Origin: a virus
Taxonomy: Duplodnaviria > Heunggongvirae > Uroviricota > Caudoviricetes
Length of the DNA stretch: 12,058 bases
Strand: one strand, 5' to 3'
IMG/VR virus record: IMGVR_UViG_2698536418_000030
Shown here: positions 1 through 12,058 of the stretch, in pieces
Position numbering within the stretch: the first letter of the stretch is position 1
How the letters are laid out: each line of letters opens with the position of its first letter
Translations under genes and position numbers: made by a program
Notes under the pieces: generated by a model
What the model was told of the DNA's origin: nothing
The model's input: only the letters and a program-made list of their open reading frames with translations
Database searches by the model: none

Positions 1-1248
1 ATGCAGGAAACGGTAAATCAGGCTTCTGGCGCATTACAGAAAAACCAGAACGGCGCGGATATTCCTGATAAGGATCGCTTCCTGAGTAACATTAATGTTT
101 ACAGCAAAGGCGAGGTGGATAAGAAAAAAGGAATGCGGCAGTACGCATTTAATGCGCCGTCTAATGCAATTGGTGGAAAGTGGTATCCAGTTATTTTCCG
201 GCGTTCCACAGGCGGCACTGGCGAGCTGGCTTCCAGAGTGATTATAACGACCACATGTGCCAGTAGTGATTACGCAATGAATAACTGCGAATTCAATGGA
301 ATGGTAATGCCTGGTGGCTGGACTGATCGTGGTTCATATGCGGCAGGTTATTTTTCGACGTATCAGACTAATGAGCGCGCAATCCATTCCATTGTAACAA
401 GCCTTAAAGAAGATGATGTATGCAGCGTTTTTTACGTTGAAGGCAGGGCTTTTCCTGTGCGGGTTTCTGCTGAAGAAGGGCTAACGGTTATTGTTCCAAC
501 TCAGGATTATACTGTCGGTCAAACAACATATAAGTGGGGAGCAACTAATCCCGCGACAGAAAGCACGAACGCACAAGCCATTCTGGATTTTAACAATGGG
601 CGAGGGTTTTATTGTTCTCACTCAATACTCGGTATTAATGCCATTTTTAGCGGAAATCTGGGGATTGGAACGGCTAATGCCCTGGGTGGAAATTCAATAG
701 TTTTAGGAGATAACGATACCGGGTTTAAACAAAATGGTGATGGGGTGCTGGATGCTTATGCTAATGGTGTGCATGTATTCCGCTTTATAAATGGTTCAGC
801 AAGATCATTAAAGGGTATTCAGGCTGGGGAAAGTAAGTTCTTCACACTTTCAAGTGCAAATACCGCTGCCCGTAATGCATCATTTAGCTTGTGGGGAAAT
901 TCGTCAAGACCAACTGTTGCAGAGCTTGGTGATGATTCAGGCTGGCATTTCTATAGTCAGCGAAATACAGATAACTCGGTGATATTTGCTGTTAACGGTC
1001 AGATACAACCCAGCAACTGGGGGAATTTTGATTCCCGCTATGTGAAAGATGTTCGTCTTGGTTCACAGCAATATCATGGTGTGAACAACTGGCAAACATG
1101 GAATTTCCAGTGCCCGTCAGGTCATGTATTGTCTGGTATTAATGTTCAGGATACAGGGTCCAACTCTGCCGATAATATAGCGGGCGTTTATTACAGACCC
1201 GTTCAAAAGTATATAAATGGCACCTGGTATAATGTAGCGAGCGTTTAA
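1..1248 (+). CDS. Tail fibre protein, alternative variable C-terminal segment (Mu S'/Sv'-like). Probably start-less and expressed only after fusion to the constant 5' part of the tail-fibre gene by inversion; the ATG at position 1 lies inside the crossover site.
   Basis: 415-codon ORF running to the window edge. Shares motifs with the C-terminal part of the 2341-3696 tail-fibre protein ([22 protein letters not shown]; C-terminal ..GT.YNV.S.). Nucleotides 2-24 match, in inverted orientation, the inner end of the crossover site plus flank at 3160-3199 (20 of 23). Followed 1 nt later by a tail-fibre assembly gene. Confidence 0.75.
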   Translation: MQETVNQASGALQKNQNGADIPDKDRFLSNINVYSKGEVDKKKGMRQYAFNAPSNAIGGKWYPVIFRRSTGGTGELASRVIITTTCASSDYAMNNCEFNGMVMPGGWTDRGSYAAGYFSTYQTNERAIHSIVTSLKEDDVCSVFYVEGRAFPVRVSAEEGLTVIVPTQDYTVGQTTYKWGATNPATESTNAQAILDFNNGRGFYCSHSILGINAIFSGNLGIGTANALGGNSIVLGDNDTGFKQNGDGVLDAYANGVHVFRFINGSARSLKGIQAGESKFFTLSSANTAARNASFSLWGNSSRPTVAELGDDSGWHFYSQRNTDNSVIFAVNGQIQPSNWGNFDSRYVKDVRLGSQQYHGVNNWQTWNFQCPSGHVLSGINVQDTGSNSADNIAGVYYRPVQKYINGTWYNVASV

Positions 1249-1249
1249 T

Positions 1250-1783
1250 ATGATGCACTTAAAGAACATAAAAGCGGGTAACGCTAAAACACTGGAACAG
1301 TATGAGTTAACAAAGAAACACGGAGTTATCTGGCTTTACGCTGAAGATGGTAAGAACTGGTATGAGGCACAAAAAGCCTTTCAGGCAGACACACTAAAAA
1401 TCGCTTACGATGACAGAGGTATCATTCGCTATATTGAAAAAGATGTGTCGTCTATTAACCCGGAAGGAATGAGCGTTGTCGAATTACCCGACACGACAGC
1501 GAATCGCCGGGCCGATATTCTCGGTGACTGGGTGTTTCAGGATGGCAAGGTCATGAAACGCCCCCGGACTGATGAAGAACTACGTCAACTGGCTGAAATT
1601 CAGAAACAGATTTTGCTGCGACAGGCCAGAGAGGAAACGCAGTGCTGGCAAACACAGCTTGCGCTGGGAATTATCAGCGATTCAGACAGGCAAAGACTCA
1701 TTAACTGGATGTTATACATGCAGCAGGTTGATGCCACAGATACCTCTGTTCTTCCTGTAACATTCCCGGAACAACCAGAATGA
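1250..1783 (+). CDS. Tail fibre assembly protein (chaperone), alternative copy (Mu U'-like)
   Basis: 177-aa ORF. N-terminal 50 residues are near-identical to the 1812-2339 product ([33 protein letters not shown]), with a divergent C-terminus. Start ATGATG is 1 nt after the stop of the upstream fibre segment. Confidence 0.85.
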   Translation: MMHLKNIKAGNAKTLEQYELTKKHGVIWLYAEDGKNWYEAQKAFQADTLKIAYDDRGIIRYIEKDVSSINPEGMSVVELPDTTANRRADILGDWVFQDGKVMKRPRTDEELRQLAEIQKQILLRQAREETQCWQTQLALGIISDSDRQRLINWMLYMQQVDATDTSVLPVTFPEQPE

Positions 1784-1786
1784 GAC

Positions 1787-1816
1787 AAGGCCCGCTATCG
1801 GGCCTTAATTTTTATT
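1787..1816. terminator. Hairpin between the convergent tail-fibre assembly genes; likely intrinsic terminator, mainly for the + strand gene
   Basis: AAGGCCCG / CGGGCCTT 8-bp perfect stem (1787-1794 and 1799-1806) with loop CTAT, followed by AATTTTTATT on the + strand. Lies in the 28-bp gap between the stops at 1783 and 1812. Confidence 0.5.
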
Positions 1817-2339
1817 CAGGCTTTTGTGGCCATTCAGGATTTGCCGTATCCACACGGCTGACCAGAACACTGTAGCGTTCCCATGACTCCAGTCGTGCGC
1901 GTTCCTCATTAGTTGCCATATTCAGCCTGACAGCACGTTCCAGCGGTTGAATCACAGACTCCGCTTCGGAAAGCAAAGCGGCTTTTTGTAACTCTGCCTG
2001 CTGTTGCAGCTCCTGTTTTGTATATTCCCGCTTTACTACTTTACCATCCAGAAACATCCAGTTTCCGTTATTGTCTGCGCGACGATTTGCCGTAATATCG
2101 GATACTTCAACAACACTTAAACCTTCCGGGTTAATAGTTGAAACATCTTTGCTTACGGTAACAATCACATTATTTTTATCGTATGCAATTTTTATAGTAT
2201 CTGGTTGAAAGTTTTTTTGTTCTTCGTACCAGTTTTTACCATCTTCAGTATAAAGCCAGACCACTCCAGCTTTTTTGGTTAACTGGTATTGTTCAGGTGT
2301 TTTGGGGTTCCCTGCTTTAATGTTTTTTAAATGCATCAT
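1812..2339 (-). CDS. U: Tail fibre assembly protein (chaperone), Mu U-like
   Basis: 175-aa ORF. Start ATGATG is 1 nt after the stop of the tail-fibre gene. N-terminus conserved with the 1250-1783 product. Size and position match Mu U. Confidence 0.85.
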
Positions 2340-2340
2340 G

Positions 2341-3696
2341 TCAAATACTCACAACGTTATAATATGTCCCACCAATCAACTTCTGAATAGGCCTTCTGGT
2401 TAATGTATCAATAAATTCATCGGTGTTGCTGTTTCCGGCTGCGGTCAGAACATATCCAGAAGTATCCCAGTAACCAGGGCCTCGCCATGCTGATATTGAT
2501 TCTGCGCTACCAAGTCGAATGTCTCTTACATATGTGCTATTGAGATAATCAGCTAAATTTGAACCCCAACACCCGCCAAATATATTTCCATCGGTGTTAT
2601 AAATGATGCCACCCGCAACAAGAGCACCCGGTGAAATAAAAGATTTATCGTTCGGGTTAAACTGCCATAAAGCATCATTACCGCCATCGCCACGCATATG
2701 AATACATGGAACCGGAAATCCATACTGTTCTGTCAGCAAATAACCAAAGCTGACCGCGCCGGGATAGCCCTGTCCATTGCGAATGGACAAGCCCTTAACT
2801 ATCGGCACGTAATGACCACCAGGAGTGGGATTCCAGGCAAACTGCGTCTGAACAAAAGGCGCGGTGGCATTATTCAACTGGTCTGCAAATGCGCCACTTC
2901 CATCAGGAATTATTCCCTGAGGAATGTATGCAACCCGCTTATAAAAATCAGCAGATGCGGGTTGAAGCCCAAATGCCAGTTGTCCATTTGAATAGAATAA
3001 AAGGACACCGTCTCCGCCCTGTTTAATACCAGTGTCGTTATCTCCGAGAGTAATGGAATTACCACCCAGTGCATTATCGGTATCAACGCCGAATGCAGAT
3101 GTCTGTGGTAGATTCAGTTTTCCGGTCATTGTATCGCCAGAACGCTGAACAGCGTTACCAGCCTTGTTTACCGTTTCCTGTAAACCGAGGTTTTGGATAA
3201 ACAGCGGCTTATTGGGAATATCTGCTCCGTTCCGGTCTTTTGCCAGACGGGCACTGGCATTATCCATCGCAATTTTCACCGCTTTTGCGGTGGCTGCCAG
3301 CGTTTCACTGGGGCTGTCAGTGGCACTGGTTAGCTGAACGAGTCCTTTTTTGTTCAGGCTGGCATCATAAATATCCAGATTTTCACGTGCTGTACGCTGT
3401 GCTGATGCCCCGGCAGTTTTAATTTCGCTGAGGTTATTTTTTATCAGCAGTGCGTTATTGCTCATAATGGCTTTAATGGATAGTGCAAGCTGGTTTAATT
3501 TTGTTTTATCCGGTTGAATACCGGCTTCTTCCAGCGTGTTTAATAACTCCGCCTGCACAATATTAAACCAGTCCATGCCGGGCCATGTGATAACATTATT
3601 CCCGTCACCTTCTGAAAACCAGCGAACGATAGCACTACGCTGGGCGGATACGGGCGGCATGACGGTTACGCCGCTGTCGTTATCAATATAAAACAT
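2341..3696 (-). CDS. S: Tail fibre protein (Mu S-like): constant N-terminal part (about 3201-3696) fused to a variable C-terminal part (2341-3174) through the in-frame crossover site
   Basis: 451-aa ORF. The 26-bp gix-type site at 3175-3200 is read in frame as IQNLGLQET. Start ATG overlaps the stop of the upstream gene (TAATG). C-terminal region has fibre-like Gly/Asn/Thr-rich repeats shared with the 1-1248 segment. Confidence 0.85.
3175..3200. other. gix-type site-specific recombination (crossover) site of the tail-fibre cassette: TTCCTGTAAACC-GA-GGTTTTGGATAA
   Basis: Two 12-bp imperfect inverted half-sites around a 2-bp core (GA at 3187-3188). Matches the Gin/Hin/Cin/Pin (Din family) crossover-site pattern as I recall it. 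Located exactly at the constant/variable junction of the tail-fibre gene. Confidence 0.8.
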
Positions 3697-4238
3697 TAGT
3701 TATCTCCGTCATGGTAAACAAATTTATAAATCTGATGCGCGGGTTTATATTTCTCCAGTAAACATTCCAGCGCACCCGATTCATAAACACGTAACGGCGT
3801 CAGAACATTATCCAGCACCGTTGCGTTGCGATAATTTTTAATACCGTAAATATTGACCTGCGTAACCCACTGGCCTTCTGTGGAATCCGTCAGCCTGACG
3901 GTAAAACCGTACTGCGCAGCCAGCCATTCATAAAAGCGCCGACTCAGATTGCCGGTCATACGCATTTTATTCGCGGCAGCCCGCTGGCGTTCGGACAGGG
4001 TGCCGTTTTCGCTGGTACAGTCCGGCAACCCCAGAAATGATTCCCACCCCCCCAGATACCAGCGGGATGTGGACGGGAAACGCTCCCGCAGCATTTGCCG
4101 CGCATCATCCGCCGCAGTGGCAATCACGTCGCTGATGGCCTGCGCCAGCGCAGATAATTTGCTGTCGGGGCTTTTATTCCAGGCAAGCCCTGACGGCAGT
4201 AATTGCAGAAAGGCCGTCTGATAGGGTGTTACAGCCAT
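3696..4238 (-). CDS. Phage tail/baseplate protein (Mu gp48/R-like; DUF2313/YmfQ-like, P2 gpI-like)
   Basis: 180-aa ORF. Start overlaps the stop of the next gene by 10 nt. Position immediately upstream of the tail-fibre gene and size match Mu R. Family assignment is from memory of gene order, not from a search. Confidence 0.75.
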   Translation of the reverse strand: MAVTPYQTAFLQLLPSGLAWNKSPDSKLSALAQAISDVIATAADDARQMLRERFPSTSRWYLGGWESFLGLPDCTSENGTLSERQRAAANKMRMTGNLSRRFYEWLAAQYGFTVRLTDSTEGQWVTQVNIYGIKNYRNATVLDNVLTPLRVYESGALECLLEKYKPAHQIYKFVYHDGDN

Positions 4239-5311
4239 TCAATTGTCCCCGGTGTTAACAGTTCCGTATTCTCCGAACGCTGGATCTCTGTCGGGAAACG
4301 CACTTCAAAATCATCCAGACCGGTAACACCTGCCACCGCACGGATAATACGGGAGGGGGCAAGTGCGCCGCCCGGCGTCACCTCATTAAAAAACATGGTA
4401 TTAATGGCGTGGGTAATAGCCTGTTTCAGTTCGGCTGTCTTCGGTGATATATAAATCCGTGGATTTACCGGCTTTGCCTTTGGCGCAAATACAGTGACAT
4501 TTACACCGTCAGGCTGTCCGACAATCAGACCGGTGATCGGGTCAGTATGACCGGCGATATAATCCGCCACGCGTTCCACGTCTGCCGGTTGTGGAAAAAT
4601 ATTGCTCCGGTTATCCATAACAAACGTCACCCCGACTGTGCCACCGCCTTTCCATGTCGGAAAACACCAGGCACGGGTAACGCCGCTGACTTCACGCGCC
4701 CAGCGAACATAATCAAACTGATTACCGCCGAACGGAGGATACTGGACACGATATTCCAGCCGTGACAGCAGCTCCGCTGCACTCTCAATATCAGCCCCAC
4801 CGGAAAACCCTTTTACAGTGATGGCATCGGAAACAACACAGGCAACCGGGGTGATCAACGTTAAAAGGGTATTCTCACCGGTATTTCCTGCTTCACCGGC
4901 AGCCAGTGCGGTAACGGTAATTTCCGTCGTTCCTGCACGGTCAATCACAATGGCATCAGCCAGGCTGTAAACCACACCATCAGCACGCTGCCAGCGTGTA
5001 CCGGCAGGAATGGTGGTCGCTGCCGATGTGGTGACAGTCAGCGGGCCGCTGGCGGCTGTCGCCTGTTTGCGGCGCACGCCCCAGAACCGGCAGTGCTCCA
5101 GCAACTCATCTTCATCTGCTGTCGACGGGATAATCTGCCGTCCAACCCATGAAATATGCTCGTGACAACCGGCAGCAAGGCCCGCCTGAGCATAAGCAAT
5201 GGCACTCAGCGTTTTTTCACGGGCCTGAGGCCAGCTACCCGGCAGGCGCTGTTCAATATTCTGTTCTGTACGGGCAATCAGCGATGATAATGTCGGTGGT
5301 GAATAAGCCAT
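4229..5311 (-). CDS. Baseplate J-like protein (Mu gp47/W-like)
   Basis: 360-aa ORF tightly packed in the tail operon. Size and order match Mu W / P2 gpJ-type baseplate wedge protein. Confidence 0.75.
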   Translation of the reverse strand: MAYSPPTLSSLIARTEQNIEQRLPGSWPQAREKTLSAIAYAQAGLAAGCHEHISWVGRQIIPSTADEDELLEHCRFWGVRRKQATAASGPLTVTTSAATTIPAGTRWQRADGVVYSLADAIVIDRAGTTEITVTALAAGEAGNTGENTLLTLITPVACVVSDAITVKGFSGGADIESAAELLSRLEYRVQYPPFGGNQFDYVRWAREVSGVTRAWCFPTWKGGGTVGVTFVMDNRSNIFPQPADVERVADYIAGHTDPITGLIVGQPDGVNVTVFAPKAKPVNPRIYISPKTAELKQAITHAINTMFFNEVTPGGALAPSRIIRAVAGVTGLDDFEVRFPTEIQRSENTELLTPGTIEWL

Positions 5312-5749
5312 TTAAACCCCGTTAAATGCTGCTTTAAACTCATAAGGAATAACGGAACCATCCGGTAATGTCAGTGCAATGTAGAGGTATAACCAGCCCT
5401 GATGTAACTGTTCCGCTCTGACGTTAATCGCACTTACCCGGCCCGCTGTTTTCAGCCATTCCAGCGCCTCTTCGGCATACCCTCTGGCGCGTTCCAGCGT
5501 ATCCGGTGTGGCTTTTTCACGTGATAACAGCCACAACCGCGAACCGATGGGGCGGTCGCGGTAACTGTCACCCCACCATCCACGGCGATCATCTGAACCA
5601 TCCGGCAGCGTGTCAGAATCCAGCGCGCGCCGGTCTGTAAACAGGGAGATTGTCACATCGGTTGTCAGGCTGTCGTCGGTCAGCATATCAATGCCATCCT
5701 GTGCAATATCGCCGCGTCCGTTCGTCCAGATAATGGCTAAATCGGTCAT
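5312..5749 (-). CDS. Baseplate wedge protein, GP46/gp25-like (Mu gp46/V-like)
   Basis: 145-aa ORF directly abutting neighbours. Size and order match Mu V. Confidence 0.75.
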   Translation of the reverse strand: MTDLAIIWTNGRGDIAQDGIDMLTDDSLTTDVTISLFTDRRALDSDTLPDGSDDRRGWWGDSYRDRPIGSRLWLLSREKATPDTLERARGYAEEALEWLKTAGRVSAINVRAEQLHQGWLYLYIALTLPDGSVIPYEFKAAFNGV

Positions 5750-6339
5750 TGCATTGGCCCCGTGGTTCCGCCGCTGTCGCCACGGTGGATATGCTTATCC
5801 GTCGATTTGCCATTGATGATGGCATCCGGGGCAGTAATATTGCTGTCGAACTGGCTTTTACCTTTAACGCCCAGACCTTTCTGGATCTCAACGTCGCCGG
5901 TAAACGTGGTTCTGGGTGTGTCAACGGTCATACTTTCATCAGCGTAAACCTCAACCGTTTTACAGGTAATGATGCAGCGTCCGTCCTTTGTCAGCCTGAT
6001 ACGATGCCCCTCGTGGTGGTAAATGCCTGCATCACCCGGTTCAAGATTTGTCGGGCGGTAGCGGCGGTCTTCCACCACAACGGCAATCCCCTGATCACGT
6101 TGTGCGCCTACACAGGCAATCAGCGCCTCTGCTCCCGGCAGGGGAACGCTGAAATGCCCGTAATTTTGCAGGCGCTCCACTTCATCAGATTCCTCATCAT
6201 CCAGCAGGCCGACCTGCAGGTTCTGAACCTTTCGCCCGTCGTTAATCACGTTAACAACAGCGCGCGCAAGCATCAGGCGCACACGACGCATCAGCGGCGT
6301 CAGCAGGCGGTTCAGGGCGAAATCATTTACTCTTTCCAC
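5746..6339 (-). CDS. Baseplate assembly/central spike protein (Mu gp45/Q-like, P2 gpV-like)
   Basis: 197-aa ORF with 4-nt overlap to the downstream gene. C-terminal glycine-rich segment (..KGLGVKGKSQFDSNITAP..GDSGGTTGPMQ) is typical of spike proteins. Confidence 0.75.
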   Translation of the reverse strand: MERVNDFALNRLLTPLMRRVRLMLARAVVNVINDGRKVQNLQVGLLDDEESDEVERLQNYGHFSVPLPGAEALIACVGAQRDQGIAVVVEDRRYRPTNLEPGDAGIYHHEGHRIRLTKDGRCIITCKTVEVYADESMTVDTPRTTFTGDVEIQKGLGVKGKSQFDSNITAPDAIINGKSTDKHIHRGDSGGTTGPMQ

Positions 6340-7466
6340 GGCGGCGTTTTCTCCGGGTGTCTGCGATAATAATCTTCAACCAGCGCATCAATACCGCCGT
6401 TACTGTCGCCGCCTTTCCTGTTTTTACGGTCGCTTTCAACCGGCACCAGAAAGCCTTCGCGTGGTGCAAGGCTGACGCGGGTTTTCAGCCCGTCCTGGTC
6501 ATTCAGTATCAGGGTGACTTTGCTGACCAGTAATTCCGTGGTTTTGATGGCATATTTCGAGGCATCAATAGTGACCAGCAGGTTCGGCATCCAGAGTTGC
6601 CCGTCCTTGCGAGTCCATCCGTCAATTTCAGCCTCAAAGGTGATGGATTTTGCCAGTCTGCGGCGTTGCTCACGCAGGGCGCGGGCCTGTGCATCCTTCG
6701 CCGTAATTTTGCTGTCAGCAATGATGATCATCGGTCTGTAACGGGTTACATCACTGTCAGTGGCGGTCCCTTTCCGGGAGACGATACTTTTCGCATCAAT
6801 ATCATCACCCTCAGCACCGTTTGCGCGGGCATACCCCTTGACGGTGTATTCGCTGAACCGGTCGCGGAAGTCTTCCTCAAAATCCAGTGTCAGCAGATTT
6901 TCTCCGAGAACCAGCTCATCAGTGGCTGTGCTGGCAGCCCGGCTGAATACCAGCTCTCCTGCGGCATTGCTGGTCATCAGTACACCGCGTGCGCGGGAGG
7001 CACGCACCAGCGCCTCATAAACGGTTTCTGAATGGTCCAGCGTGAAGCCGGGAAAAGCTGCCGAACTTTCCTTATCGGAAAGCTCCCAGCGAACGGTAAC
7101 GCCATAAGGAGCGCACAGGTCACGCGCAATCTGCTCCAGTGTGCGGTTTTTCCACTGTCCGCCACTGTAAACGGCAGCACAGTCAATCAGGTCAGCCGTT
7201 TTGTCACGTCCGGCGATAGTGATTTTCATGCTGTCAGCGGTCATCTGGCGTCGCCGCGAATCGATATAACCGGTGCAGACAATCTGCCCGTCGATTTCCA
7301 GCGTGAACGCCTTCCCCGGTGCCAGCCCGGATAAATCTGTACCCGGTGGCACATTCACCCCCAGCTCAAAATATCCGGCTACGGATTCAATGGAGCGGGT
7401 GACAGAGACTGACGTCCAGCCGGTAAAAAGCCTGCCATCCGTTCGCAGCGTGACGGTATTACTCAT
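6327..7466 (-). CDS. Baseplate hub / tail protein (Mu gp44/P-like, P2 gpD-like)
   Basis: 379-aa ORF. Overlapping start/stop with neighbours. Size and order match Mu P. Confidence 0.75.
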
Positions 7467-8946
7467 TAATCACCTCAATACTGACACCACCGGGAACAAA
7501 CAACGGGTTGCTGATACCGTTCCTGCGGGCCAGCCGTTGCCAGTTCCGGCTGTTTCCTGTGTAACGGTACAGAGCCACCATTGCAGGCATCGTCTCCGGC
7601 AGGCGGTGCGTTTCACTGCCTGCCAGTTGCAGCCCGCGTTTTTCCAGGTCGGCAACAACCAGCAGACGCAGTTGCGTAAGCTGAACGCTGTCTGTCGAAA
7701 AGCCCTGCTCAGATGCCGTCAGAATGACGGTATCCAGCGCTGCCCCCAGCATGGCGGCTGTTTTTCCGATATCGGACACACTTTCAAATACCGGGGGCGT
7801 GGCTGTACCACTGTCTGAAAAGGATACCTGTGAAAAGCCGCCGTCCGGGGTTATGGCAGTTAACTGTAACTGTCCCTGTGTGACGGTAGCGGATGTGCTG
7901 CTGGCCCCGCTGGCTGTGCCGGTTGTGGTGGACGGGGCATCCAGTACAGGTGCACGGGCGGCATTATCCATCCGGCGACTGAAATCCAGTGCCGCAGTCA
8001 GTGCCTGGCTTGCTGCCTCCGCCCGGTATGTCTGTGCTGCTGCCAGCATGACGTAGTTCAGTGTGGCAATATTTTTTTCTGCAACCGGACTGTTGTACGA
8101 GGTTGTGATTGTCCCCTGTCTGCCTGCGGTGGCGGCATGGCGACGTTCGAATCGCTGCGCCAGACGGTTCCATGTGGAAAATGCTGTCCGGGTATCGCAT
8201 AACGATGAAACGCCGGACAGCGCCCCCATCAGCGAGGAGGCCAGCATGGCAGGCTGGTTAATCAGGCTGGTCACAGAGCCTTTCATCGCAGAAAGCGATC
8301 CCATCAGACCGCTGACAGTCTGCGTAACCCCCAGATTGTCCACCGCATCACTGATATCATCGATGACACCGGTTACAGCTTCCATCACGGCGGTTGCCGC
8401 CGCAGTGCCATCTTTTACGGTCTGCCAGACAGAGGACAGCGTATCTCCCAGAGAACCGGTTACAGCAACGGCCTGTGCCGGTACGGCTGCACTGGTGTCT
8501 GTCTCTGAGTCCGGGGCAGTATCCTGCAACGACGGATAAACGGTAACGGTGAACGCGTAATAATTCAGTTCATCCGCTTTAGTGCGGCATTCCCATGAAT
8601 CCACCATGACGTCCACAGTGCCGAAATCAGGATGTACCAGCTCACCGCTACCCGGAGCATCAAGAGCATCCATCAGCGCACCCGCTTCATCTCTGGCTGT
8701 TTCTGCGTTGCTGTTCAGAATGCAGGCGCTGAATGTACGGGAGCGAAGCTTTTTCCCCAGGTCATTGACGCCGCCGGTATCACGTAACGGGTACTCGCGT
8801 TTAACCAGGCGACGTCCGCCAGCCTGTTTTTGCTCCTCGATGACGAGAAACGGCACGTTACGAAACGTGCCTTTGCCGGTTGTTTTCTTACCACCGCTGA
8901 TTTTATCCCGGACAGCATTAACGGCATTTAAAGCATCTTCAAACAT
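7459..8946 (-). CDS. Mu N-like tail protein (DNA circularization protein family)
   Basis: 495-aa ORF immediately downstream of the tape-measure-like ORF and upstream of the baseplate hub gene. Size and order match Mu N (gp43). Confidence 0.7.
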
Positions 8947-8950
8947 GGTT

Positions 8951-10279
8951 TTACCAGCCTGTAATGTAGTTATCGCCCGCGTAAATATTCAGCCCCATAC
9001 CGTCCTCGGTGACGCGGGAACTGGTCAGACGTAACCCCTCGGCAAGTTCGACGCGCAGCGAGGCTTCCGCATTCACTTTTTGTTCCTGCGGTTCCTTATC
9101 CGGGGCCGTCCATTTCTGATACAGGTCGGTTACAAAACCGCCCAGATACTCCCCGGCGACACTGCCCAGCGTGGCACCGGCAACCGTACCCAGCGGTCCG
9201 GCAAGGCTGCCAACGGCACCGCCGAGCCATGCACCGGCTGTACTGCCAATTGCGCCTGCTTTTTCATGGGTTGACGCCTGCTCATCCATCAGGACGGGGG
9301 CAAGCTGGAGTGCCCCCATTACTGGGCCACCCAGACGTGACAACACACGACCGGCACCTTTCCCCATCCAGCCCAGCGCCCCGGCACCTTTTGTCACAAC
9401 CCGACCGATCGCACTGCCTGCAAGTTTGTTTCCGATACCGGAAAACCACCCGCCAACAGCACGCCCGGCATCAGCCAGCTTTCCGACCGTTCCCGTAACC
9501 AGTTGCCCGGCAGCACTGCCTGCAAGCCTGCTCAGAAGACCGGATTTACCGGGTAAAGGTAATGGTGCAGGCCGTGCTGTTACCGGTACGCCGGGTGGGG
9601 GTAATGCCAGTACAGGGCGTGGTGCAGGTAATGCCAGCGGCTGTGGCCCGGACAGCAATAACGGCTGGCGGGGTAACAGCGGGGCCATTCTTCCGCCGCT
9701 CCGTCCGCGACGACCGCCGCCACTCCCGTAGCCACCAAATCCACGGGGCCAGTTGATGACAAACACACGCTGAATGCCGATACCCTGCAACAGCGTCTCA
9801 GACGTCATGGCATCCGGGACCGGCAGACCTGCCTGCCCACGTTTGCGGTTTCGCATCCAGCGCCACATACGACGCCCGGTTTTAAACGGATAACTGGCAA
9901 CCTGCCATGAGGGTTTTGCCACGGCCCAGCCTGCTCTCAGGGCTTTATTGGCAAGCCAGACAGACACCAGAACAGCAGCCAGTTTTTTCAGGCTGACAAT
10001 ATTCTGGTCAACCCATGCCAGCGCATCTTTACCCGGTTTCAGCCAGCGCCATAATTCCTGCGCCGCGATTTTTACCGTTCTGAACGTGGTCAGAAATTTC
10101 TGACCAATGTTTTCTGCCAGTGCGTCAAGTTCCCCGGATTTATCCGCCATGTCGTGCCAGTTAAGCACCCGGCGCATCTCGTTCTTGATTTCTTCAAAGG
10201 GGCCGCTGTTTGCCACCTTTATGCGAAATTCAAGCAGGTTAGCTTCCATCTGGGCGAACATCCCGTCCCAGGAGTTCAT
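8951..10279 (-). CDS. Phage tail tape measure protein, C-terminal portion. Likely 5'-truncated: the frame stays open upstream of the first ATG to 10471 and ends at a TAA inside the gix-like site.
   Basis: 442 aa from the first ATG. Contains a hydrophobic segment, a Pro-rich linker ([34 protein letters not shown]) and long glycine-zipper repeats ([20 protein letters not shown].., GxxxG pattern) typical of tape-measure C-terminal halves. Position upstream of the N-like gene. Hand translation of 10280-10471 gives 64 further sense codons with no start codon. Confidence 0.65.
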
Positions 10280-10467
10280 CGCACTGGCCTGTGCACCTTT
10301 TGACTGTTCTGACAGCGTTCTGAATACCGTCAGAATGGATTTCAGACCCAGCTTGCCTTTTTCACCTTGTTTGCGGATATCCTTAACGTCTTCTTTACCC
10401 AGTGCATCCGCCAGCGTCTGGTAAACGTTAATACCGTAACCGGTCAGCAGGTTGGCATCCGCCGCCG

Positions 10468-10493
10468 TGATTTAAAACCGAGGTTTTAGATAA
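10468..10493. other. Second gix-like recombination site, immediately upstream of the invertase gene: TGATTTAAAACC-GA-GGTTTTAGATAA
   Basis: 20 of 26 identical to the site at 3175-3200 in direct orientation, with the same GA core (10480-10481). The gin-proximal half GGTTTTAGATAA differs from the 3175-3200 outer half by 1 nt; the distal half is more diverged. Lies 55 bp upstream of the invertase GTG start. Confidence 0.7.
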
Positions 10494-10547
10494 TGGCTGT
10501 TTCCGGCCTGCATGGCATGATTTGCGCTTTTAAACGGGAGATCCAGA
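10494..10547 (+). promoter_or_regulatory. Invertase 5' leader with ribosome-binding site; the promoter probably overlaps the adjacent crossover site
   Basis: GGGAG at 10536-10540, 7 nt before the GTG start at 10548. In Mu the gin promoter is said to overlap the adjacent gix site (from memory). No clear -35/-10 pair identified by eye. Confidence 0.3.
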
Positions 10548-11141
10548 GTGCTGATTGGCTATGTAAGGGTATCAACAAATGACCAGAATACAGACCTGCA
10601 ACGAAACGCTCTTGTTTGTGCAGGATGTGAACAAATATTTGAAGATAAATTAAGCGGAACAAGGACAGACAGACCTGGATTAAAACGCGCTTTAAAGCGC
10701 CTTCAAAAAGGTGACACACTTGTTGTCTGGAAACTGGATCGCCTCGGGCGAAGCATGAAACATTTGATTTCTCTCGTAGGGGAATTACGAGAGCGAGGGA
10801 TTAATTTTCGCAGTCTTACTGACAGTATTGATACGTCATCTCCAATGGGGCGTTTTTTCTTCCACGTTATGGGTGCCCTGGCTGAGATGGAACGAGAACT
10901 AATCATCGAGCGAACGATGGCTGGACTTGCTGCCGCCAGAAATAAAGGCCGTATTGGTGGGCGACCACCTAAACTAACCAAAGCGGAATGGGAGCAGGCC
11001 GGGCGTTTATTAGCACAAGGAATCCCCCGCAAGCAGGTTGCATTGATCTACGATGTGGCCCTGTCAACTCTGTATAAAAAACACCCCGCGAAACGAACGC
11101 ATATAGAAAACGACGATCGAATCAATCAAATCGATCGGTAA
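10548..11141 (+). CDS. gin: Serine recombinase DNA invertase (Gin of phage Mu; Hin/Cin/Pin family), GTG start
   Basis: 197-aa product MLIGYVRVSTNDQNTDLQRNALVCAGCEQIFEDKLSGTRTDRPGLKRALKRLQKGDTLVVWKLDRLGRS.. carries the resolvase/invertase catalytic N-terminal domain (serine in VRVST) and a C-terminal helix-turn-helix (GRPPKLTKAEWEQAGRLLAQGIPRKQVALIYDVALSTLYKK). Essentially the Gin/Pin sequence as I recall it. Followed by com and mom. Confidence 0.95.
   Translation: MLIGYVRVSTNDQNTDLQRNALVCAGCEQIFEDKLSGTRTDRPGLKRALKRLQKGDTLVVWKLDRLGRSMKHLISLVGELRERGINFRSLTDSIDTSSPMGRFFFHVMGALAEMERELIIERTMAGLAAARNKGRIGGRPPKLTKAEWEQAGRLLAQGIPRKQVALIYDVALSTLYKKHPAKRTHIENDDRINQIDR
10566..10635. promoter_or_regulatory. 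Probable Fis-dependent recombinational enhancer (sis-like) inside the 5' part of the invertase coding sequence
   Basis: GGTATCAACAAATGACC (10568-10584) resembles the Hin enhancer proximal Fis site GGTGTCAACAATTGACC (recalled). A second G..N13..C candidate lies about 48 bp downstream (10618-10632). Both sit about 95-150 bp from the centre of the 10468-10493 site, as in the Hin/Gin systems. Confidence 0.4.
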
Positions 11142-11223
11142 TACAGATCGATTATGTCTCAATAACCACACTCAACCCATGATGTTTTTTAAGATAGTGG
11201 CGAATTGATGCAAAGGAGGTGAG
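11105..11223 (+). promoter_or_regulatory. mom operon control region: Dam-methylation (GATC) cluster, T6 tract and weak promoter, then the com ribosome-binding site
   Basis: Three GATC sites within 35 bp (11115-11118, 11133-11136, 11146-11149). TTTTTT at 11185-11190 followed by TAAGAT. AGGAGG at 11213-11218 before the com ATG. Matches the known Dam/OxyR- and C-dependent organisation of Mu Pmom. Confidence 0.55.
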
Positions 11224-11412
11224 ATGAAATCAATTCGCTGTAAAAACTGCAACAAACTGTTATTTAAGGCGGATTCCTTTGATCACATTGAAATCAGGTG
11301 TCCGCGTTGCAAACGTCACATCATAATGCTGAATGCCTGCGAGCATCCCATGGAGAAACATTGTGGGAAAAGAGAAAAAATCACGCATTCTGACGAAACC
11401 GTGCGTTATTGA
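11224..11412 (+). CDS. com: Com, zinc-finger translational activator of mom
   Basis: 62-aa product [41 protein letters not shown].. with a C-x2-C..C-x2-C zinc finger. Matches Mu Com as recalled. Strong ribosome-binding site. Overlaps the mom start. Confidence 0.95.
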
Positions 11413-12058
11413 GTATGAAGGCCAGATTGTTGGCTATGGTTCAAAGGAGCTGCGCGTTGAAACCATATCTTGCTGGCTGGCCCGCACAATTATTCAGACA
11501 AAGCACTATTCCCGCCGTTTTGTGAATAACTCTTACCTCCACCTGGGAGTATTCAGCGGACGCGATCTGGTTGGCGTTCTCCAGTGGGGATATGCCCTTA
11601 ACCCCAACTCAGGTCGTCGTGTCGTGCTTGAAACGGATAACCGGGGCTATATGGAGTTGAACCGCATGTGGCTACACGACGACATGCCCCGCAACTCTGA
11701 ATCACGGGCCATCAGTTATGCACTGAAAACCATAAGGTTACTGTATCCGTCAGTGGAGTGGGTTCAGTCTTTTGCAGACGAACGCTGCGGACGTGCTGGC
11801 GTTGTGTATCAGGCGTCAAATTTTGATTTTATTGGCAGCCATGAAAGCACGTTCTACGAGCTGGATGGTGAGTGGTATCACGAGATAACGATGAACGCGA
11901 TTAAACGCGGTGGACAACGAGGCGTGTATTTACGGGCTAATAAAGAGCGTGCCGTGGTGCACAAATTTAATCAGTATCGCTACATCAGGTTCCTGAACAA
12001 GCGAGCAAGGAAGCGACTAAATACCAAGCTATTCAAGGTTCAGCCATACCCTAAGTGA
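11363..12058 (+). CDS. mom: Mom, DNA adenine-modification protein (anti-restriction). Start assigned to GTG at 11363; the frame is open from ATG 11333.
   Basis: ORF in the +2 frame overlapping the 3' end of com. GGAG at 11352-11355 lies 7 nt before GTG 11363, giving a 231-aa product, the Mu Mom length as I recall it. No ribosome-binding site precedes ATG 11333. Ends at TGA 12056-12058, the window end. Confidence 0.85.

Follow-up and report, generated by a model that had tools for sequence, protein, structure and literature searches.

A tape-measure-like gene without a start codon, whose reading frame is closed by a stop codon inside a DNA-inversion site, could belong to a defective prophage, could result from recombination at that site, or could owe its shape to the way in which the sequence was assembled. 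Such a gene lies at positions 8951-10474 of a 12,058-nucleotide stretch of Caudoviricetes DNA (IMG/VR record IMGVR_UViG_2698536418_000030), hereafter the window. Our analysis indicates, with a probability of about 0.92, that the start-less tape measure protein (TMP) gene is a scaffolding artefact of a short-read draft assembly, and neither a defective prophage nor a recombination product.

According to the ORF listing and translations, the genes of the window form the right-hand part of a Mu-like prophage (Table 1). The minus strand carries a TAA at 10474-10472, followed in translation by 64 codons that include no ATG, GTG or TTG. The open frame from 10471 downward, ITAADANLLTGYGINVYQTLADALGKEDVKDIRKQGEKGKLGLKSILTVFRTLSEQSKGAQASA, begins with ITAADANLL, runs to AQASA and meets its first ATG at 10279, which is codon 65 after the TAA; its stop ends at 8951, giving a product of 442 aa from this Met or of 506 aa for the whole open frame. 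The invertase matches genes annotated gin or DNA invertase in phages D108 and Mu, and com and mom overlap by 80 nt, as they do in Mu. Two gix cores (AAACCGAGGTTT) are found in the window, one at 3182-3193 inside S, where the site encodes IQNLGLQE of the fibre protein, and the other at 10475-10486 just upstream of the invertase gene. As written, the gin-com-mom block adjoins the tape measure fragment and not S'. The first-pass annotation of the locus had described the TAA, the 64 start-free codons, the Met at 10279 and the 442-506 aa product, and all of these literal statements hold for the window as written.

Table 1. Features of the window discussed in the text, with strand and basis of assignment.
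Feature	Position	Strand	Basis
S' variable part, alternative tail fibre, without its own start	2..1248	+	Identity to L002 and L006 from window 2
U'	1250-1783	+	ORF listing and translation
Fibre assembly gene U	2339-1812	-	ORF listing and translation
Tail-fibre gene S, 451 aa	2341-3696	-	ORF listing and translation
Left gix site TTCCTGTAAACCGAGGTTTTGGATAA, inside S; inner boundary of the invertible G-like segment	3175..3200	+	
Baseplate genes	7466-3696	-	ORF listing and translation
DNA-circularization-type gene	8946-7459	-	ORF listing and translation
C-terminal 506 codons (residues 186-691) and stop of the 691-aa TMP gene	8951..10473	-	100% identity to L002 18951-20473
Tape-measure-like ORF	10279-8951	-	ORF listing and translation
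Scaffold-join placeholder	10474..10474	.	N in the L004 record, A in the window
Right gix part: gin-proximal half-site, 2-bp core and 5 bp of the distal half, AAACCGAGGTTTTAGATAA	10475..10493	+	
gin-type serine DNA invertase, 197 aa	10548..11141	+	ORF; Pfam Resolvase and HTH_7 on the identical L004 gene
com, zinc-ribbon translational activator of mom	11224..11412	+	PF10122 Zn_ribbon_Com on the identical gene; Com family in A20
mom, DNA modification gene	11333..12058	+	PF25680 Mom; A20 annotation 'protein mom'

The complete form of the tape measure gene is available from other genomes. With window 8951-10474 as the query, genes annotated 'tape measure protein' were found in 44 complete E. coli genomes at 97-99% identity, and the full-length homologues, which are 690-691 aa long, reach 185 codons further upstream. 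In the sibling assembly GCA_001285765.1 (L002), positions 10002-20473 are 100% identical to window 2-10473, and the tape-measure frame runs on upstream to 21026, giving a protein of 691 aa. The 506-aa translation matches this protein from residue 186 with zero mismatches, and the window fragment also retains the final two bases of codon 185. Where the window shows TAA, the intact gene has CAA, encoding Gln185. All that is lacking relative to L002 is codons 1-185, since the contig stops at that point. The description of the ORF as a 5'-truncated tape measure gene is therefore borne out by homologues that extend 185 codons upstream, and the alignment proposed by the first-pass annotation equates the 506-aa translation with residues 186-691 of the full-length protein. 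The TMP of the Mu-like prophage in E. coli strain A20 (WP_021548366.1) has about 99% nucleotide identity to the window fragment; its gene, of 2073 bp (690 aa), reads ...ATGTTTGCCCGCCAGCAAATCACAGCGGCGGATGCC... across the point at which the window departs. The TMP genes of E. coli Mu-like prophages have the same downstream neighbours as that of the window, namely the DNA circularization protein, the baseplate genes and the S/U module. A20 has KDVKD (GKDVKD) where the window has KEDVKD (GKEDVKD), with one extra Glu codon in the window; this one-codon indel, at about 10389-10391 of the window and about 5175 of the A20 sequence L001, accounts for the lengths of 691 and 690 aa.

The assignment as a tape measure protein is supported by profile, position and length. 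The 691-aa L002 protein matches PF20155 (TMP_3) over residues 106-267 with 54.4 bits (cut-off 41), whereas the match of the window fragment by itself, to profile positions 120-186, reaches 28.2 bits, since the TMP_3 domain is severed at the join. The gene order in A20 is sheath, tube, tail assembly protein, TMP, DNA circularization protein and baseplate genes; in L002 a Gp41_Mu gene lies upstream of TMP, and the window keeps the downstream half of this tail-module order. The gene thus occupies the place of a tape measure in a contractile-tail module, with the tail assembly chaperone gene on one side and the baseplate hub or DNA circularization genes on the other. Tape measure proteins contribute, as a rule of thumb, about 1.5 Angstrom of tail length per residue, and at this value 691 aa correspond to about 104 nm. 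The earlier remark that 442-506 residues would be short for a Mu-type tail fits this figure. The real TMP gene would be intact and 691 aa long, and nothing suggests that the strain itself has a tail defect. Residues of about 430-490 of the full protein (window 9550-9740, minus strand) comprise a Gly/Arg-rich stretch followed by a Pro/Leu-rich stretch of low complexity, and towards the C-terminus residues 593-630 give a weak glycine-zipper match of 18 bits, which does not reach the cut-off.

The origin of the stop codon became apparent from the deposited record. An exact-protein look-up with the S' ORF led to three NCBI draft assemblies. Scaffold CYCB01000036.1 of the draft E. coli assembly GCA_001283405.1 (L004) has the arrangement of the window, window position 1 being L004 position 79, and 11247 of the 11248 bases compared are identical. 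The sole difference is window 10474, which is A in the window and N at L004 position 10552, so that the deposited record has an uncalled base exactly at the junction. This base, an A on the plus strand, is the T of the minus-strand TAA, the first base of that stop. Since it is N in the deposited scaffold, neither the TAA nor the adjacency of the tape measure gene and gix is observed sequence; the claim of a TAA-closed frame is right for the window as written, but the stop and the contact with gix depend on a T that was deposited as N. The gene call in L004 reads through the N as a chimeric ORF of 520 aa (L004 9029-10591, window 8951-10513) that starts at an ATG in the gix-gin spacer and reads MQAGNSHYLKPRFX-ITAAD..., which is why an exact look-up with the 442-aa product retrieved no record. 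Searches for the missing part gave no counterpart in GCA_001283405.1: a homology search with the N-terminal 185 aa, corresponding to codons 1-185, found only partial or variant proteins of other assemblies, and the cluster listing for the N-terminal part contained none assignable to GCA_001283405.1.

The left end of the window is unusual as well. The 78 scaffold bases upstream of window 1 are gin-proximal sequence in normal orientation, and L004 68-79 is a run of 12 A where L002 has AAAACCTCGGTT, so that the A-run stands in place of the gix core. Window 1 is the last A of this run. At the same point the sibling assemblies read TTG CAG GAA, part of the gix site; judged from these sequences, the ATG at window 1-3 that opens a 415-aa S' ORF is spurious, its A coming from the 12-A run, which gap filling probably produced as an artefact. 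S' lacks a start of its own, and its expression depends on an inversion that joins it to the constant part of S.

Both flanks of the junction are found, in another order, in intact prophages. In A20 the order is that of canonical Mu (TMP, ..., S, U, U', S', gix, gin, com, mom). Window 10475-12058, with gix, gin, com and mom, is 100% identical to the block that adjoins window 2 in L002 and in L006 (GCA_001265535.1), an N-free independent assembly that is also 100% identical to window 2-10473 and in which the two alignments meet at base 9143. Each flank thus keeps the order of an intact reference, and the junction occurs in this record alone. It is absent from 5426 complete E. coli genomes, among which 44 carry this TMP and 783 this gin, and from 50,697 phage records, and a 28-base junction pattern with N at the join had no match in the genome_contigs or metagenome_contigs sets. 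Three metagenome contigs carry the intact TMP sequence across the same point and run beyond window 10473. The window shares with the Gin/gix system of the Mu G-segment the gin gene, a pair of gix sites, S/U and S'/U' cassettes that oppose each other, and com-mom further downstream, and once the misjoin is undone its order and orientation are those of Mu. In Mu gin lies beside S', whereas in the scaffold it lies beside the TMP fragment, a difference that comes from the assembly and not from the phage. Read from its sequence, the gene is a standard TMP of an E. coli Mu-like prophage, and the locus consists of a standard Gin/gix G-segment with com and mom after it.

The position of the break bears directly on the mechanism. 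A gin-side query (window 9900-11200) gave matches in 783 of the 5426 complete E. coli genomes, all of which start at query base 576, or window 10475, as do the matches in phage records (Mu, D108 and Yersinia Mu-like phages). TMP-side matches start at query base 2, or window 10473, in every record listed. Base 10474 alone falls outside both homologies, and the break, at 10473/10475, is 5-6 bp away from the central dinucleotide of gix, on the outer side. A right gix in its normal form reads TTATCTAAAACCTCGGTTT(A/G)CAGGAAACGG and the window TTATCTAAAACCTCGGTTT-T-AAATCACGGCGG; the bases that follow the GGTTT-side end of gix in L002, L006 and A20 are (G/A)CAGGAAACGG, which belong to the S' variable part.

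Recombination by Gin between the right gix and a pseudo-gix in the TMP gene, which would have inverted the whole tail module and cut the gene, is the reading suggested by the location of the junction within a gix-like sequence of 26 bp that immediately precedes gin; we nevertheless find it scarcely credible. Gin/Hin-family serine invertases exchange strands at the central 2 bp. Exchange at the central 2 bp of the 26-bp site is not what the window displays, as homology to the gix locus runs 5 bp past the core. The distal GGTTTN of the hybrid site would have to come from TMP, but the intact gene has GCCAGC at that place, with no resemblance to gix (GTTTGCCCGCCAGCAAATCAC). With the break 5-6 bp outside the core and no gix-like sequence in the intact TMP gene, a Gin-catalysed crossover is excluded; in addition, the in-frame TAA depends on the N. 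Nor is the reciprocal product seen: the TMP N-terminal part is not at the S' end, which is occupied by gin-proximal sequence. The first-pass annotation had attributed the truncation to recombination at the site, and this does not survive a break off the core, a joining N and flanks 100% identical to an intact prophage, although its own caveat, that a crossover at the core would place the TAA inside the original gene, was a correct warning. Two candidate traces of recombination were rejected. The ATG at window 1-3 was considered as the ATG of a TMP 'CAG ATG' located 13 bp upstream of the break, which would make a reciprocal junction, but the 78 bases before it are gin-proximal sequence and the run of 12 A. 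A new distal half-site, TGATTT(N)AAACC, resembles the proximal half TTATCTAAAACC at 10 of 12 positions; this likeness is meaningless, because AAACC is gix itself, one base is N, and only 4 of the 6 remaining, TMP-derived bases match.

A genuine large rearrangement of another kind, in which an illegitimate, non-Gin inversion or inverted duplication from the outer edge of the right gix to the TMP gene would have left a defective prophage that retains a TMP fragment without a start, appears improbable; on this reading the N would be no more than a base left uncalled. It would agree with the continuity of the window as given and with the fact that the scaffolder joined these ends at all, which we take as normally requiring several linking read pairs. 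The other end of the 10.47-kb block nevertheless joins gin-proximal sequence in the normal way, so that two inverted copies of gin would be needed; a true inversion would place the TMP N-terminal part upstream of window 1, where gin-proximal sequence is found instead. A clonal junction would moreover have been assembled through and not left as N, the junction occurs in no other genome, and N-joins that are plainly spurious affect sites of this kind in sibling assemblies. More doubtful still is a variant in which the link would stem from genuine read pairs of a cell subpopulation where a 10.5-kb block, from the right gix to the middle of TMP, had been inverted, or copied in inverse orientation, beside gin; if true, the rearrangement would be associated with the invertase, would extend well outside the G segment and would have its break at the border of the site, not at its core. 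We likewise give almost no weight to the 442-aa ORF as a genuine shorter TMP or an internally initiated product. There is indeed an ATG at 10279 and the frame is open to 8951, but this Met is residue 251 of the 691-aa protein, a start there would cut the TMP_3 domain, and the homologues observed in N-free contexts are all 676-691 aa long, P0017 being a 676-aa full-length variant. L002 has the 64 codons that precede the Met with 100% identity, and they are also conserved in A20 and in the homologues P0001 and P0017. The first-pass annotation had named, as evidence against a truncation, homologues that begin at the Met corresponding to 10279 with the upstream codons unconserved; these codons are conserved coding sequence, and among the homologues found no full-length TMP starts at that Met.

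The scaffolding misjoin can be pictured as the union of two contigs. The first (contig X, window 2-10473) would begin at the S' end of the G-like segment, take in the tail-fibre and baseplate genes and stop at TMP codon 185/186. The second (contig Y, window 10475 onward) would start at the right gix branch point and include gin, com, mom and flanking host sequence. It would properly belong next to window 2, where the S' end is already in its normal adjacency, given the gin-proximal sequence upstream of window 1; the scaffold would instead have placed contig Y, flipped, at the TMP end across a single N, and the showing of this N as a base in the window would turn Gln185 (CAA) into TAA. Contig Y would end after GGTTT, the point at which the two orientations of the G segment diverge into GGTTTG (S' side) and GGTTTA (S side). 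The assembly graph likely forks there because a Gin-expressing culture holds both orientations. The N, the complete match of each flank to a prophage in normal order and the lack of this junction in the other sequences searched are direct observations, whereas the cause of the contig ends, and whatever led the scaffolder to link them, are matters of inference. Pipelines of the SSPACE/GapFiller type leave one N where adjacent contig ends show no overlap, and here too a single N stands at the very point where the scaffold ceases to be collinear with all other genomes.

All three assemblies retrieved with S' contain single-N misjoins within or beside the invertible segment. L002 has a single N at 9091, where S' (window 710) is joined to an internal com/mom point (window 11385), creating a 1.6-kb tandem duplication (com'-gin-gix-S'). 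In GCA_001285845.1 (L003), the left gix, …AAACCGAGGTTTT, is joined by a single N at 13195 (position 14070 of L009) to a point in the middle of pqiA, and a tandem duplication of 8.1 kb (pqiA'-pqiB-pqiC-mom-com-gin-G segment) results. Both are spurious and impossible tandem duplications. Invertible segments, being mixed within a culture, break short-read assembly graphs at the recombination sites, and the loose ends can be misjoined. When the placeholder N is then replaced by a base, the result resembles the fusion of a truncated gene with a recombination site and even contains a false stop codon. Scans for degraded prophages or for off-target invertase events should therefore mask junctions that coincide with N.

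The TMP gene appears to break elsewhere as well. Queries with its first 185 aa returned mostly 'partial' proteins from the contig ends of draft E. coli and Salmonella assemblies, among them a 60-member cluster of fragments (68-143 aa among those listed) and others of 145-290 aa. This suggests that the N-terminal third of TMP is a recurrent assembly breakpoint in drafts, possibly owing to sequence shared between co-resident Mu-like prophages.

At the opposite end, window 1-3200 forms a complete invertible G-like segment, in which S is fused across the left gix and followed by U, with U' and S' on the opposite strand. The two variable parts, like the two assembly proteins, are diverged paralogues, and U' has about 74% nucleotide identity to the tail fibre assembly region of A20. 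The identical mom/gin right end adjoins different host genes among assemblies L005-L013, as is expected of near-random Mu-type transposition: its neighbours are pqiC, rsmI/lpoA, a hyf-type hydrogenase operon, an aldehyde dehydrogenase gene and a dosC-like gene. The same right end also occurs in the 168-kb record CP024297.1, together with IS66 and the plasmid genes ParM/StbA.
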